Below, piece by piece: positions 40,337-57,450 of a stretch of DNA of 64,000 nt. How positions within the stretch are numbered: position 1 is the first letter of the stretch; every line of letters starts with the position of its first letter. This DNA is from an uncultured Bdellovibrionales bacterium (GTDB taxonomy: Bacteria; Patescibacteriota; Minisyncoccia; Moranbacterales; UBA1568): positions 68,110 to 132,109 of the forward strand of contig CAZGXN010000001.1 in NCBI GenBank assembly GCA_964530135.1, written 5' to 3'. Made by a program: the position numbers and the translations under genes. The notes under the pieces are model-generated. The model made no database searches. It saw only the letters and a program-made list of their open reading frames with translations, and had not been told where the DNA came from.

Positions 40337-41608
40337 TTAAAGTCCCTCGTAACTCCGCATCATGAGCTGGCTCTGAATATGCTTCACGAGCTCAAGTACA
40401 ACCGAGACAACGATCAAAATACTGACACCACCAATCGAAAGCGCCTGGATACCCGTCATCCCCTGCACGATGATCGGGAGTATAGCGATAACACCGAGAA
40501 AGAGCGCGCCGGTAAAGGTAATACGGGTGATGATATGGTGGAGGTACTCAGCCGTTGATATACCAGGGCGAATACCTGGCACATACCCGCCCTGCTTCTG
40601 CAAATTCTCAGAAATCTTCATCGGATCAAACACCACTGCTGTATAAAAGTATGTAAAGAGTACAACAAGTGTAAAGTAGGCAATCCCATATACCCACTGG
40701 TTCTGGAGAAAGGTGGCCACCGAAATAGCCATCTCCGCAATGCGGGCATTTGGCGACGAGGTGAAGAAATTTGCGACCATGGTCGGGATCAAGATCAACG
40801 AGACCGCAAAAATGATAGGGATCACACCGGCTTGATTCACTCGAAGCGGCAGATGTGTCGCTGATCCGCCATAGACGCTCGAACCACGCACCCGCTTTGC
40901 ATAGGCAATCGGGATCGTGCGCTGACCCTCATTGATAAAGATAACTCCCGCCACGGTAATCAGTCCGAGAGCGAAAAAGACAAGATAGGTAAAAAATTGA
41001 GATGGGTCCCAGGTTGCAAAGAGGCGCGAGGCCCCCGTCGGCAGTGCGGCTACAATACCCGCAAAAATAAGCATCGAAACGCCGTTCCCCAACCCCTTCT
41101 CTGTGATGAGTTCACCGAGCCACATGAGAAAAACCGTCCCCGCCGTCGCCGAGAGAATGATCACAACGATCGTAAACGGGGTAATATCTGCCAGGATGTT
41201 CTGTGAACGCAGCAACGAGATCATACTGAATGACTGCAGTGCTGCCAAAGGCACAGTGAGCCAGCGCGTCCACATATTGAATTTCTGCCGACCCTGCTCA
41301 CCCTCTTCTTTGTACATCTTTTCAAGCGCTGGAAAAATTGTCTGCATGAGCTGCATGATGATCGATGCCGTGATATACGGTGCCACACCGAGGAGCACGA
41401 CCGAGATGTTTGAGAGTCCGCCGCCCGAAAAAATATTCAAGAGCCCCAAGAGCGCATTGTCTTCAAACAACCGTTTGAGCTGAAATACATCCACGCCTGG
41501 GAGTGGGATATTGGCTACCAGGCGATACACCACCAGAAGCCCCACGATAAAGAGAATCTTCTTGCGAAGATCGGGGGTGCGAAGGATTTGGGAGAAAATT
41601 TCAGTCAT
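40337..41608 (-). CDS. secY: Preprotein translocase subunit SecY
   Basis: Ten TM helices with the SecY signature. A 200-bp AT-rich spacer separates it from adk. Confidence 0.92.
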   Translation of the reverse strand: MTEIFSQILRTPDLRKKILFIVGLLVVYRLVANIPLPGVDVFQLKRLFEDNALLGLLNIFSGGGLSNISVVLLGVAPYITASIIMQLMQTIFPALEKMYKEEGEQGRQKFNMWTRWLTVPLAALQSFSMISLLRSQNILADITPFTIVVIILSATAGTVFLMWLGELITEKGLGNGVSMLIFAGIVAALPTGASRLFATWDPSQFFTYLVFFALGLITVAGVIFINEGQRTIPIAYAKRVRGSSVYGGSATHLPLRVNQAGVIPIIFAVSLILIPTMVANFFTSSPNARIAEMAISVATFLQNQWVYGIAYFTLVVLFTYFYTAVVFDPMKISENLQKQGGYVPGIRPGISTAEYLHHIITRITFTGALFLGVIAILPIIVQGMTGIQALSIGGVSILIVVSVVLELVKHIQSQLMMRSYEGL

Positions 41609-41901
41609 GAGTCAAAAACATCCTCATTTTAGGCCAAAACCGAGGAAATGGCAATGCTCCAAAAGTGCTCCAATGAAAATCAAATTATTTCCACTTTCCT
41701 TATGCCAAATCCTTGGGAACAACCACCAATTTCTCCTCCCTTCACTAGACGAGAAATAACGACCGAGTAGGGAATGTTCAAAAAAATAATCTCACAGATA
41801 TAAACAAAAAGACCCGAGGAATCTGCGATGCAGTTTCCAAGGGTCCGAGGGTCTAGGTGTCCAAGGGTCTTTTGCCCAATGGACTCCAAGAGACGAAAGC
41901 G

Positions 41902-42621
41902 TCAGAGCGCCGCGTTGCCGGGGCAGAGAACCTGGCGGTCAGCGAGCCAATCGCCAAGCTCGCCGAGCCCCCAGTCGTCGACGAACCACTGGCGGTCGTT
42001 AAAGTCCCAGCCGACACTCACGGTGAAAATTTCACCGTTTTTGCCCTCGACGTAGAAGATATTCGCGTAGCCGTTGTTGAGGAGCAAACCCGACTGGCCG
42101 CCCGGCTGTGCCTCGATCAAGGCTGCGATGTCTTCCAGCGTGGAGAGGTGGTTTTCCGGCAGTTCCTCCCTGATGTCTCGGTCGTAGGCGTTCGCTTTGA
42201 GGAGCGAGGCTACATAGGGACATGCCGGGGTCGAATCCACCGTCTGCCTGGCGTGGATGTCGAGGCGATCGGCGAAGGTGTCGTGGATGTAGAGGCCGGT
42301 GCCGGTCTGGTAGAACGCCGCCGCATTGAAGGGCTTGGTTCTCGCCGGAACGGTTGACTTGCCGACAGGCTTGAGGAGCCGGGTTTCAGCGAGTTGCGGG
42401 TAACGCGAGCTGAGCTGCTTCAGGGCATTGATGGTTGCGCGTTCGATGGCAACCTTGAGCTCGTCGCCGCGCACGATGACCAACTGGGCACCGTCCTTGT
42501 CGAGAAAAGTCGCTTGAGCGACTGCCGTTTTGGCAGCGCTTTCAGCGGCATCCGCGACGAAACGCACGATTTGCTTGTCCTGTCCTGACGTTACTTCTGA
42601 CGTGATTGGCTGAGCCATCAT
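41902..42621 (-). CDS. Hypothetical protein, GC-richer than its surroundings, inserted between rplO and secY
   Basis: RBS AAGGAG is 3 nt before the ATGATGG at 42621/42618. No recognisable domain. The gene has its own promoter and terminator. The track ORF begins at 42675. Confidence 0.55.
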   Translation of the reverse strand: MMAQPITSEVTSGQDKQIVRFVADAAESAAKTAVAQATFLDKDGAQLVIVRGDELKVAIERATINALKQLSSRYPQLAETRLLKPVGKSTVPARTKPFNAAAFYQTGTGLYIHDTFADRLDIHARQTVDSTPACPYVASLLKANAYDRDIREELPENHLSTLEDIAALIEAQPGGQSGLLLNNGYANIFYVEGKNGEIFTVSVGWDFNDRQWFVDDWGLGELGDWLADRQVLCPGNAAL

Positions 42622-42695
42622 CGTCTCCTTTGTCAAAGAAAATCCCCTGAATGCCGGGAATCGAGGCAGTCGCAAGTTTTCACTTACAACCCATA

Positions 42696-42724
42696 ATTAT
42701 ACACCTTTTTAGGCTTGGTGTCAA
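42696..42724 (-). promoter_or_regulatory. Perfect consensus sigma70 promoter on the minus strand (TTGACA-17-TATAAT) driving the inserted gene
   Basis: Minus strand reads TTGACAccaagcctaaaaaggtgTATAAT. Confidence 0.6.
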
Positions 42725-42732
42725 TACATAAA

Positions 42733-42758
42733 AGAGGCTCCCATGAGCCTCTTTTAAT
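42733..42758. terminator. Strong bidirectional intrinsic terminator immediately after rplO
   Basis: aaaAGAGGCTCccatGAGCCTCTttt: a perfect 8-bp stem flanked by A- and T-runs. Confidence 0.7.
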
Positions 42759-42777
42759 CTAAAAATTTGAATGAGGG

Positions 42778-43212
42778 CTACTCCTCGATGATCGAACCGC
42801 CCTTCTTCAAAGTCTCGGCGGCGCTCGCCGTCATGTCGATATCCTTGCCGATGACGAGCTTCTTCGTGAGTTTACCGGTATTGACGATTTTGACACCCGC
42901 TCGGCGGACAACTTTGCCCAAAATCTTCTTCTCGACAAACGCATCGCGGGTTACTTTCTCACCATCCTGGAAATGCTTTTCGAGACGGTCAAGAGTTACC
43001 GTAAAGAGCTTCTGATAGACGGACTTGAACCCGCGCAGCTTCTTCATCCGTTCGACGAGTGATGAACGCCCACCTTCAAACAACGGATCTTTCTTCTTGC
43101 CATGTGCACCCTGGCCCTTGGTACCACGACCAGCCGTTGTGCCACGTTTGCCACCCCGACCGATGCGCTGCGTCTTCTTGCGGGGAGCGAGTTTGAGTTC
43201 GTGAATCTGCAT
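42778..43212 (-). CDS. rplO: 50S ribosomal protein L15
   Basis: MQIHELKLAPRKKTQRIGRGGKRGTTAGRG... Confidence 0.92.
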   Translation of the reverse strand: MQIHELKLAPRKKTQRIGRGGKRGTTAGRGTKGQGAHGKKKDPLFEGGRSSLVERMKKLRGFKSVYQKLFTVTLDRLEKHFQDGEKVTRDAFVEKKILGKVVRRAGVKIVNTGKLTKKLVIGKDIDMTASAAETLKKGGSIIEE

Positions 43213-43222
43213 ATTGAGTATC

Positions 43223-43810
43223 TTAGACGGAAACGGCTGTTTGCTTATCTTCTGTCTTATCCTCGATCTTCACTGCTGCCGGGTTCTCCGTTCCCCCATC
43301 TGTTTCAATACTGGTCCGAAGTTTCTGCAGCGCGAGCAAGGTCGCTTGAGCCACATTGAGGTTGTTGGAGCTACCGAGGGACTTAGCAATGATGTCTTTC
43401 GCGCCGAGGAGGTCCATGACCGCGCGCACAGCACCACCAGCGATGAGTCCACGGCCAGTTGTCGCCGGTTTCAACAATACCTTGGCACTCCCATACTTCG
43501 CCGTCACATCGTGAGCGATCGAACTCCCTGTGAGCACTACTGTAATCATATTCTTCTTCGCCGCTTGGAAAGCCTTCTGGATCGCATCCGAAACATCGCT
43601 GCCTTTGGCGACACCGACACCGACTTTACCCTTACGATTGCCGATGACGAGCGTCGCGCGGAAACGGAAGCGACGACCGCCTTTAACGACACGAGTAACA
43701 CGCGCCAGATTGAGCATCTTCTGGTCGTACTCTGGCCGTTCACGGCGCTGGCCGCGTGGTCCACCTCGCCGCGGTCGTCCACCACCCTTCATTTGTTCAT
43801 TCGTCGCCAT
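43223..43810 (-). CDS. rpsE: 30S ribosomal protein S5 (basic N-terminal extension)
   Basis: ...MLNLARVTRVVKGGRRFRFRATLVIGNRKGKVGVGVAKG... No L30 gene lies between S5 and L15. Confidence 0.92.
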   Translation of the reverse strand: MATNEQMKGGGRPRRGGPRGQRRERPEYDQKMLNLARVTRVVKGGRRFRFRATLVIGNRKGKVGVGVAKGSDVSDAIQKAFQAAKKNMITVVLTGSSIAHDVTAKYGSAKVLLKPATTGRGLIAGGAVRAVMDLLGAKDIIAKSLGSSNNLNVAQATLLALQKLRTSIETDGGTENPAAVKIEDKTEDKQTAVSV

Positions 43811-56982: not shown

Positions 56983-57450
56983 TTAGGCAAAGTGAGCAAA
57001 GGCCTTGTTGGCTTCCGCCATCCGATGCGTCTCATCACGCTTCTTCATGGCTGAACCAACTTTGTTTGAAGCATCGATGAGCTCGTCAGCGAGCTTCTCA
57101 GCCATCGACTTCCCCTTGCGGTTGCGACAGCTATCACGAATCCAGCGCATGGCGAGCACTTGGCGGCGTTCACTCGAAACCGGAACTGGGACTTGATAGT
57201 TGGCACCGCCGACACGCCGGCTCTTGAGCTGAAGCAGTGGGGCGACATTTTTGATCGCCTGTTCAAAAGTATTCAAGCCCGCTTTCTTGGTACGCTCGTA
57301 AATGATATCAAATGCATCGTAAATGATGCGCTCAGCGATGCTTTTCTTTCCCGCCCACATAATCATCCCGACGAAATGACCAACCAACGGATTCCCAAAA
57401 CGAGCGTCCGCCTTCCATTCTTTATCAAATTGTCGCTTTCTCCGTGGCAT
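56983..57450 (-). CDS. rpsG: 30S ribosomal protein S7
   Basis: S7 family sequence. Confidence 0.93.

Follow-up and report, generated by a model that had tools for sequence, protein, structure and literature searches.

A probable DGR variable-protein gene placed as a solitary cassette between rplO and secY of a CPR bacterium

The DNA analysed here, a stretch of 64 kb that is called the window below, carries a 239-aa ORF (ORF239, start ATGATG) between rplO and secY, all three genes being on the minus strand (Table 1). The rplO-secY junction is among the most conserved gene junctions in bacteria, and the gap between the two genes is 20–190 bp in most of the approximately 55 relatives that show both of them; in about 50 relatives they are direct neighbours. 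An earlier note on this DNA had described the ORF as splitting this normally tight junction, and both the insertion and the coordinates given for the ORF were borne out, as was a non-coding spacer of about 290 bp before secY, which measures 293 bp (41609-41901). A spurious ORF was ruled out by 164 conserved homologs. The terms used below are those of diversity-generating retroelements (DGRs), which alter a small number of codons and thereby vary a binding protein, by means of a template repeat (TR) and a reverse transcriptase (RT).

Table 1. Features of the rplO-secY region of the window
Feature	Coordinates	Strand	Description or basis
rplO (uL15), neighbour upstream of ORF239	42778-43212	-	Pfam Ribosomal_L27A
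Upstream hairpin	42729-42756	-	12-bp stem UAAAAGAGGCUC/GAGCCUCUUUUA, core GAGGCTC/GAGCCTC; left end of the portable cassette
Sigma-70-type promoter-like site TTGACA-17-TATAAT	42696-42724	-	12/12 consensus match
Structured 5′ leader	42631-42690	-	9-bp hairpin, then two crossing helices UGCC/GGCA and UCCC/GGGA forming a putative pseudoknot
RBS AAGGAG, 3 nt before ATGATG	42625-42630	-	direct sequence reading; kept in aligned leaders
Probable CDS of DGR variable (target) protein, 239 aa + stop	41902-42621	-	homology; VR signature in homologs
Variable region (VR), homologous to TRs of related DGRs	41918-42031	-	VR/TR alignments
IMH-like 3′ end of VR, GGTTCTCTGCCCCGGCAACGC	41909-41931	-	conserved GC-rich block
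3′ UTR with two conserved hairpins from GACCCTTGG motifs	41802-41901	-	right end of the cassette
Spacer of unassigned origin, from the cassette end to the conserved secY upstream block	41657-41801 (~145 bp)	-	
secY promoter-like site TTGCCA-17-TAAAAT	41626-41654	-	10/12 match
secY, neighbour downstream of ORF239	40337-41608	-	Pfam SecY, E = 1e-103

ORF239 is part of a unit of approximately 950 bp (41802-42754) that comprises a hairpin, promoter, structured leader, CDS and terminator, and that was found in at least 12 genomic neighbourhoods; at rplO|secY it occurs only in the window. The edges of this cassette are sharp and common to other loci: the homology to the window begins at 42740-42754 and stops at 41801-41806, the latter edge being found in 14 loci (loci are given below by L numbers), and the surroundings vary from genome to genome. 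When the cassette ends were searched for terminal repeats and for duplications of a target site, only the 6-mer AGATTA was found on both sides, which we judged to be a chance occurrence; since nothing else is shared by the two ends, no mobility mechanism can be proposed. For the spacer of about 145 bp next to the cassette, similarity to other loci, to RT or to Avd was sought and none was found.

At the upstream end, the hairpin possesses a 7-bp G+C-rich core, the loop AUGG, an A-run on the 5′ side and a U-run on the 3′ side (−17.9 kcal/mol, z = −3.4). Read from the sequence, it looks like a terminator or an insulator, although it was absent from the output of the consensus terminator scan. The same GAGGCTC/GAGCCTC core precedes the promoter in L002, L004-L008, L012, L018 and L019. 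A perfect 8-bp GC hairpin had been reported at 42733-42758 as the rplO terminator; the hairpin is real, its size and position had to be corrected to those in Table 1, and its assignment to rplO does not hold because it travels with the cassette and is also found elsewhere in unrelated contexts. The promoter-like site, noted before as a perfect consensus, is the sole perfect sigma-70 match in the 64-kb window, where sites with at most one mismatch number 5 vs. 0.19 expected. Its part AAAAAGGTGTATAAT occurs once in the window and is common to the cassettes of other genomes and to the DGR unit that L030 has between rplO and secY. The previously noted RBS is also present and is a strong one.

The putative pseudoknot in the leader was examined by aligning 16 loci: 90.7% of the cells were paired vs. 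83.6% in shuffles (0/500 reached the observed value) and 31–50% in slid controls, and compensatory changes were seen in 8 of the 17 pairs. An Rfam scan of 41400-43000 yielded no match for the leader at E <= 1, its lone match being a chance-level miRNA inside the CDS (E = 0.79). An attenuator in the 5′UTR was considered and rejected, as the U-run after helix 3 is not kept in the L004-type leaders.

The 3′UTR folds at −39.7 kcal/mol (z = −4.0), and its second hairpin (41810-41846), followed by UUUUUGUUU, resembles an intrinsic terminator. The outer stem is kept in 18 loci; the inner stem varies in sequence with its pairing apparently kept, as judged by eye. The motif GACCCTTGGA (TCCAAGGGTC on the plus strand), described earlier as tandem copies in the spacer, is present in two perfect copies and one with a single mismatch at 41836-41869; its window-wide count is not above chance, yet this clustering is real, and the conservation check identified the copies as arms of the conserved 3′ hairpins. 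The gene was thus correctly said to carry promoter-like and terminator-like elements of its own; that the promoter is used and that transcription terminates here are suggested at the level of sequence patterns.

The protein has 164 homologs at 50–84% identity, and all the named ones belong to Candidatus Moranbacteria (CPR); a profile search extended the family to 1984 cluster representatives. Neither Pfam, PHROGs, PADLOC nor NCBIfam gave a usable match for ORF239 (PADLOC yielded no family at E <= 1), Pfam did not match any of 123 superfamily members, and a sequence profile search of the PDB found no match. Relatives were not found in IMG/VR either, which gives no indication that phages carry the family. 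No signal peptide and no membrane segment were found in the protein, and a homing endonuclease or a transposase was rejected because such domains are lacking and the DGR signature described below accounts for the gene. An AF2 model built with a 26-sequence alignment was unusable (pLDDT 49.6) and was replaced by one from a 123-sequence alignment, which reached a pLDDT of 94.9. The predicted layout consists of a three-helix N-terminal domain (12-71) and an alpha/beta C-terminal domain (83-234), and Foldseek found no significant match for this model in PDB or BFVD.

The variability of the family is concentrated near the C-terminus. In 80 full-length homologs, an entropy above 2.8 bits was found at residues 202, 204, 206, 209, 211, 213, 215, 218, 222, 224, 226 and 229 (the codons for aa 202-229 span 41935-42018), while the W, V, R, L and G positions between these 12 hypervariable codons are nearly invariant. 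Among close homologs the hypervariability is confined to the VR codons: members of a single 90%-identity cluster are near-identical outside the VR and display 6–10 residue types at most of the hypervariable positions.

The related loci point to the source of this pattern. The L001 homolog has its final ~140 nt repeated 300 nt downstream, and at every difference the second copy has A. Seven such VR/TR pairs in cis have 11–21 mismatches at TR adenines and 0–2 elsewhere, and in all seven the VR and TR diverge directly after the IMH-like block, which is of the type GGCAACGC in VRs and GGCCACGC in TRs. A TR of this family would be expected to read much like GTGAATGTCAACTGGAAC…CAGGTTCTCTGCCC, with TTTAAC as the variant present in the window. 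An RT follows the target in L001/L009, L007, L012, L013, L015 and L025 (tblastn, 62–66% identity); RVT_1 was detected with E = 5e-26 and confirmed for L001 and L007, and L001 has the motif LGNLTSQ. The profile scan for bAvd (PF22296), which covered L001 and L030, found it in L001 and in the other-type element of L030 (E about 1e-12), antisense between the TR and the RT, and antisense ORFs homologous to bAvd lie between the TR and the RT in L007, L012 and L013. The order target, TR, antisense bAvd, RT is found in 8 related loci.

On this evidence, ORF239 is very probably a DGR variable-protein gene, placed as a solitary unit of ~950 bp between rplO and secY. The window holds the target half only and not a whole DGR: a search with the family RT (tblastn) and blastn found neither a TR nor an RT in the 64 kb, and no Avd ORF was seen within the insert. 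A 36-nt match at 57090-57124 was considered as a TR and rejected as a chance match, since it lies inside a ribosomal protein gene. As there is no cognate VR/TR pair in the 64 kb, the DGR membership of the window copy rests on homology. When compared with the consensus TR, the window VR differs at 20 TR adenines and at 7 other positions, the latter differences all being G/C-to-A/T transitions, and the combination I198/T200/F207/N208 is found in no other of the 80 homologs.

In the proposed mechanism, the RT would copy the TR RNA into cDNA, misreading adenines, and the cDNA would replace the VR (about 41918-42031). Twelve strongly and about five weakly variable codons on a beta-sheet scaffold would be re-randomised, giving an altered binding surface; the protein would have a ligand-binding role. 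By analogy, the IMH-like block may act as the IMH does in the Bordetella phage DGR model (Guo et al. 2011, as cited in PMC8144416).

Whether the window copy is rewritten in trans or frozen is about an even question, and we infer a slight leaning toward the absence of recent rewriting. With a probability just short of one half, the machinery was lost or never arrived, so that the VR is frozen and the protein, subject to no more than the usual mutation and selection, keeps a single specificity. The TR and RT are indeed absent from the window, the four scaffold substitutions named above are unique to its copy, and all seven non-adenine differences run from GC to AT, as background mutation in a 50% GC genome predicts. 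However, the other solitary copies have similar numbers of non-adenine mismatches (0–7), the TRs of different genomes differ among themselves at 5–14 positions, and neither the gene nor its regulatory parts show any decay.

The same intactness favours an active remote target, that is, a working hypervariable locus whose cassette is rewritten in trans by a TR-bAvd-RT set elsewhere in the genome, a reading that we hold to be tenable, at somewhat less than an even chance. Intact features comprise the ORF, the scaffold residues, the IMH-like end as well as the 3′ hairpin, and from the promoter through the RBS the window is ~97% identical to the full DGR of L007. Solitary copies are also common: of 21 GTDB loci, at least 13 stand alone within ±8 kb, and a consensus TR fits several of the solitary copies with 0–3 non-adenine mismatches. 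CAZOKB01 contains both a full DGR (L012) and a solitary copy (L016), and the VR of L016 has one non-adenine mismatch to the TR of L012; remote targets are, besides, documented in the literature. Against this reading stand the lack of a TR or RT in the 64 kb and the seven non-adenine transitions, which recent homing would erase unless an unseen TR shares them.

The history of the insert can be approached through the junction itself. None of the 26 other loci that carry a homolog has it at rplO|secY, and the three closest relatives (L028, L029 and L030) have different inserts there, so that a vertically inherited member of the spc/secY operon, which the earlier note had named as the finding that would overturn its view, can be rejected. 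The inserts of L028 and L029 are unrelated genes for small secreted proteins. That of L030 contains a hairpin, a promoter with the same CTAAAAAGGTGTATAAT, a TR, bAvd and a DGR RT that is 60% identical to the RTs of the ORF239-type elements; this TR belongs to another type (…WNDNYRFLGVR) that has no match in the ORF239 VR, and its target was not found in L030, the window or any fetched locus. The host genes are close, SecY and uL15 of L030 being 92% and 91% identical to those of the window and the rplO of the window being 90% identical to the rplO of both L028 and L030. At this junction, one strain has the target cassette and a sister strain the TR-bAvd-RT module, with the same promoter core in both.

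The conclusion drawn earlier that secY must use a new promoter did not survive the comparison: the site upstream of secY is kept as TTGCTC or TTGCCA-17-TAGAAT or TAAAAT in L028, L029 and L030, whatever the insert, and a −10-like TATACT precedes secY in most of the more distant relatives examined, even with a short gap. An insertion at rplO-secY would be tolerated because the lineage has a separate promoter-like element for secY.

It is quite unlikely that the solitary cassette is the remnant of a complete DGR once present at rplO-secY, of which the window lineage kept the target and the sister L030 the TR-bAvd-RT. The L030 module, lying exactly at the junction with its hairpin, CTAAAAAGGTGTATAAT promoter and related RT, speaks for such a split. 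It is countered by the differing TR type, by a 145-bp spacer in the window that holds no RT or Avd remnant, and by the unrelated inserts of L028 and L029, with which independent insertions fit equally well.

As to composition, ORF239 has a GC content of 0.604 and a GC3 of 0.75, and the GC skew changes sign within it; the window overall has a GC content of 0.50, and its ORFs of at least 200 aa average 0.512 (sd 0.031) for GC and 0.538 (sd 0.058) for GC3. All family members have 57–62% GC in hosts with 48–50%, and the RT genes of the same elements have 44–46%. Judging from these values, high GC3 is a family trait and not a mark of foreign DNA. The earlier reading of a GC-rich foreign gene therefore stands as to the GC excess (60% vs. 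about 50% in the flanks) and falls as to the origin, the high GC being family-wide and all named homologs belonging to one lineage. That the gene came from an outside donor, as its high GC would indicate, and perhaps serves as cargo for immunity or defence is highly improbable: its composition is atypical for the window, it is inserted at a conserved junction, and the cassette DNA of two genomes is 77% identical vs. 67% for secY and 65–72% for ribosomal protein genes (which is compatible with cassette exchange among Moranbacteria), but the named homologs are all of one lineage, the high GC3 is common to the family in all hosts and contrasts with GC-poor partner RT genes, PADLOC, PHROG and IMG/VR lend no support, and the DGR signature accounts for the gene. 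The functional part of this reading, which had proposed defence cargo for want of a recognisable identity, is already largely refuted by the lack of a PADLOC match and the identification as a DGR variable protein.

The system to which the ORF239 cassette belongs is of a known kind; what is unusual is its location. The DGRs of CPR bacteria form a clade with targets that lack known domains, and remote targets exist (clade 2, Roux et al. 2021, PMC8144416). Like these, the related loci have a target, TR, bAvd and an RVT_1 RT, the VR/TR mismatches are adenine-specific, the VR is C-terminal in a small protein devoid of transmembrane or known domains, and the elements are cellular rather than viral. 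Unlike these, the window has the target half only, within a string of ribosomal protein genes and secY, and the target, whose structured leader is conserved, is predicted to form an insulated cassette from promoter to terminator; the full elements of the family also differ in that bAvd is antisense between the TR and RT and that the TR seems to be transcribed as a short unit of its own.

With the remote targets of Treponema denticola and cyanobacteria (PMC4891356, PMC7517822), the system shares a VR gene far from the TR-RT, and one Moranbacteria genome has a full element together with a solitary copy fitting its TR; in contrast to them, trans targeting of the window copy is unproven, as no TR is known for it. 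Mtd of the Bordetella phage BPP-1, TvpA of Treponema and other C-type-lectin-fold proteins are similar in the C-terminal VR, the AAY-coded variable residues on an invariant scaffold, the IMH-like GC-rich end and a hairpin downstream, but have no sequence similarity to ORF239, whose variable residues alternate along beta-strands.

We consider it unlikely, though worth stating, that in the Moranbacteria clade DGR parts move as insulated promoter-to-terminator cassettes for which rplO-secY is a preferred landing site. If true, this would mean an unrecognised mechanism that relocates DGR modules, perhaps mixing targets and templates between genomes. Akin to this is the possibility that the ORF239 family has a scaffold other than the canonical C-type lectin fold and is under the control of a new pseudoknotted leader RNA.

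Several consequences follow for the family and its hosts. The label of DGR targets can now be given to a family that lacked annotation and a Pfam model and comprises about 2000 clusters at 50% identity, and a high-confidence structural model exists for it. DGR targets can be free-standing cassettes, predicted to be strongly promoted, far from any RT, and surveys limited to RT neighbourhoods overlook such remote copies (PMC8144416). The rplO-secY junction proves polymorphic in this CPR clade, the likely reason being the secY promoter located there. Finally, a compact, cytoplasmic-looking protein with a conserved structured leader offers a tractable case for studying the function of proteins varied by the DGRs of CPR bacteria.

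The 239-aa ORF between rplO and secY was described in an earlier note as GC-rich and equipped with its own promoter, RBS and terminator hairpin. This description proved real, with minor corrections to the signals. The proposed compositional scan gave a GC of 0.604 and a GC3 of 0.75 for the ORF, against means of 0.51 and 0.54 for the other ORFs in the window, and the perfect promoter reported ahead of the gene was found to be unique in the window. The rplO gene directly follows rpsE without an intervening rpmD (L30) gene (window 43212-43223). CPR bacteria are reported to have lost L30 as a lineage trait, and the missing rpmD fits the Moranbacteria assignment of the window.

Features of the rplO-secY region in the window (gene order rpsE, rplO, 239-aa ORF, secY, adk, map, ruvX-like gene)
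Feature	Position	Strand	Remarks
rpsE		-	
rplO	42778-43212	-	
12-bp hairpin	42729-42756		between the rplO stop and the promoter; -17.9 kcal/mol, z = -3.4; followed by U residues
Promoter-like TTGACA-17-TATAAT	42724..42696	-	12/12 match, the sole perfect one in the 64-kb window
RBS AAGGAG			3 nt ahead of the ATGATG of the ORF
239-aa ORF	41902-42621	-	
Structured 100 nt downstream of the ORF stop			-39.7 kcal/mol, z = -4.0; terminates in a long hairpin and UUUUUGUUU
GACCCTTGG motifs	41836-41869		arms of the 3′ hairpins of the ORF
secY	40337-41608	-	
adk, map, ruvX-like gene		-	

Family searches, as proposed in the note, returned 164 homologs of the ORF protein at 50-84% identity, the named ones all from Candidatus Moranbacteria/Moraniibacteriota, and no match in the protein family libraries. 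The decisive lead to its identity came from genomic context. In the locus L001, a repeat of the final ~140 nt of the homolog lies downstream of it, then an RVT_1 gene, and each difference between the two copies falls on an adenine in the downstream one. Such adenine-only differences are the hallmark of diversity-generating retroelements (DGRs), in which the downstream copy serves as template repeat (TR) and the variable region (VR) lies at the 3′ end of the gene. Among GTDB species representatives, a scan for homologs yielded 21 loci; a TR lies downstream of the target in 8 of them, and 7 of these 8 also bear a reverse transcriptase (RT) gene. The seven represent six distinct loci, since L009 is the same place as L001, and the contig of L017 stops before any RT could show. 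The RTs are mutually 62-66% identical, and an antisense gene for the accessory protein bAvd (PF22296), Pfam-confirmed in L001, sits between TR and RT, with homologous ORFs likewise placed in L007, L012 and L013.

In the seven cis pairs, 11-21 adenine positions and 0-2 others distinguish the VR from its TR. Among 80 full-length homologs, twelve residues within 202-229 exceed 2.8 bits of entropy and five more, with single-A codons, show 1.5-2 bits, while almost no variation is seen at the intervening W, V, R, L and G positions. Within one 90%-identity cluster the proteins are near-identical outside the VR, with 6-10 residue types at most hypervariable positions. Of the 32 adenines in the consensus TR, 20 correspond to a different base in the window VR. 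Taken together, the adenine pattern of the VR/TR pairs, the confinement of variation to the VR and the comparison of the window VR with the consensus TR allow us to conclude from sequence that the ORF encodes a DGR variable protein. With VR/TR pairs, RT and bAvd present in related loci, the former suggestion that the gene could be defence cargo gives way to that of a DGR target.

The TR in full DGRs seems to form a short transcription unit of its own. It begins with a -10-like GATACAAT (L001:4800-5200, L007:1090-1460; equivalents in L003, L012, L013, L015, L017 and L025), which is followed by a conserved ~200-nt 5′ part (GGTATGTTGGAAATTTCTTTCGGCTACGGCTGAAAGG…), the TR and, last, a terminator hairpin. 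Within the DGR RNA, this conserved 5′ part may act as a structured element.

No TR or RT was found in the 64-kb window, and no bAvd ORF in its insert, so that the window copy of the target is solitary within this range. Solitary copies are common: TR and RT are missing within 8 kb in at least 13 of the 21 GTDB loci. The CAZOKB01 genome bears both a complete element (L012) and a solitary copy (L016), whose VR shows only one non-adenine mismatch to the L012 TR. This makes trans-targeting credible in the family; remote targets are known for other DGRs. The window VR shows seven non-adenine differences from the consensus TR, all G/C-to-A/T transitions, and its I198/T200/F207/N208 combination occurs in no other of the 80 homologs, which hints at an absence of recent rewriting. 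However, other solitary copies show 0-7 non-adenine differences, and TRs vary among genomes. Two tandem target genes lie upstream of a single TR in L015:7110-8696; the distal one differs from this TR at 15 non-adenine positions and from the family consensus TR at only 3-4, and is probably served by another template or a relic. L014:3062-3186 and L022:615-739 show no TR or RT match, yet a TR-unit start directly follows the target terminator, and is itself followed in L022 by sequence similar to the end of bAvd; both loci look like deletion remnants of full DGRs.

The high GC of the ORF had been taken as a mark of foreign origin. In the four genomes measured, a GC3 of 0.75-0.78 is a trait of the target family, and the adjoining RT genes have a GC of just 0.44-0.46; high GC3 is therefore no sign of a foreign donor. 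A scan of IMG/VR showed no relatives.

The edges of the inserted unit were delimited by blastn of 27 loci against the window. In 14 loci, similarity begins at 42740-42754 and ends at 41801-41806, thus revealing sharp and common boundaries of a cassette with five parts: upstream hairpin, promoter, structured leader, CDS and 3′ hairpins. The promoter core AAAAAGGTGTATAAT is unique in the window. The upstream hairpin also stands ahead of the promoter in loci with parB, a NUDIX gene or a divergent gene on the upstream side; hence it belongs to the cassette itself and not to rplO. The leader (window 42631-42690, minus strand) can fold into a 9-bp hairpin and a pair of helices that cross each other; this putative pseudoknot would be of the H type. 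Covariation analysis found 90.7% of cells paired vs. 83.6% in shuffles (0 of 500 reached the observed value) and 31-50% in slid controls, with compensatory changes in 8 of 17 pairs over 16 loci. Rfam holds no match for the leader, which may have a regulatory or stabilising role peculiar to this family of DGR targets. In the 3′ terminator hairpin, the outer stem is kept in 18 loci, and the inner stem varies in sequence with pairing apparently retained, as judged by eye.

By flanking genes, the cassette occupies at least 12 distinct neighbourhoods, including the SUF operon, parB|manC, NUDIX|PFOR and FemAB; among the loci examined, only the window has it at rplO|secY. L024 bears a short homolog three genes further on, between map and ruvX. 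Its DNA identity to the window is 77% in the cassette, 67% in secY and 65-72% in the ribosomal protein genes, suggesting either cassette exchange within the lineage or an unusual constraint on its nucleotide sequence. Several TPA MAGs with the Moranbacteria-type cassette (L007, L010, L012, L014-L016, L019, L024, L025) are titled "uncultured Bdellovibrionales bacterium", including L024, whose SecY is 70% identical to that of the window; the title looks like a mislabel.

A SecY-based metagenome scan gave 80 loci, about 55 of them with both rplO and secY visible and a gap of mostly 20-190 bp, which upholds the inference of an insertion in the window. The three nearest relatives (SecY 92-95% identical; uL15 90-91% in L028 and L030, where rplO is on the contig) each carry a different insert. 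A 104-aa signal-peptide protein of unassigned family is found in L028 and L029 (L028:2935-3500; L029:70-1368), the latter additionally encoding a 321-aa CARDB-domain protein. L030:1529-3449 (Ga0163144_10000514; SecY 92% identical) comprises a hairpin and a promoter sharing the cassette's CTAAAAAGGTGTATAAT core, together with a TR that is of another type (…WNDNYRFLGVR), bAvd in antisense orientation and a DGR RT; no target gene was found near this module, nor a matching VR in any sequence examined. A further occupant, a 146-aa opposite-strand ORF without a Pfam match (L024:4575-5015, minus strand), lies in the gap of about 660 bp in the more distant L024, and typA is inserted in a still more distant lineage. 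The junction is an insertion hotspot in the window's clade.

The window, L028, L029 and L030 share ~50 nt upstream of secY with TTGCCA or TTGCTC-17-TAAAAT or TAGAAT. Since this promoter-like block is conserved despite different inserts, the putative secY promoter predates the insertion and, contrary to the earlier note, is not a consequence of it. Most of the more distant relatives examined (L031-L051, L024) have a -10-like (G)TATACT 25-50 nt before secY, even with gaps of 45-100 bp, which suggests that an internal secY promoter is ancestral in the lineage. We infer that secY has its own promoter there; insertions with terminators would then be tolerated, and the junction has become polymorphic.

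A profile search extended the family to 1984 representatives at 50% clustering, with a conserved core at residues ~76-239. Among 123 sampled members no relevant Pfam domain was detected (a single member gave one chance-level match), and a PDB sequence search found no relative. The AlphaFold model built with a deeper alignment (pLDDT 94.9, pTM 0.84) predicts an N-terminal domain of three helices and a C-terminal alpha/beta domain, where the variable residues alternate along three beta-strands. Foldseek found no match for it in PDB or BFVD. A C-type lectin-like fold is a plausible candidate. The lack of known domains agrees with the report of CPR DGR targets without recognisable domains or membrane segments (Roux et al. 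2021, PMC8144416).

The earlier note had thus captured a real, well-described anomaly and correctly inferred an insertion; what changes is the nature of the gene, the meaning of its GC content and where the flanking signals come from. DGRs have been documented in CPR bacteria before, as have domain-less and remote targets. New and worth recording are the unannotated superfamily, now with a confident structural model, the insulated cassette format, the conserved, putatively pseudoknotted leader and the presence of DGR modules at the polymorphic rplO-secY junction in two sister strains.
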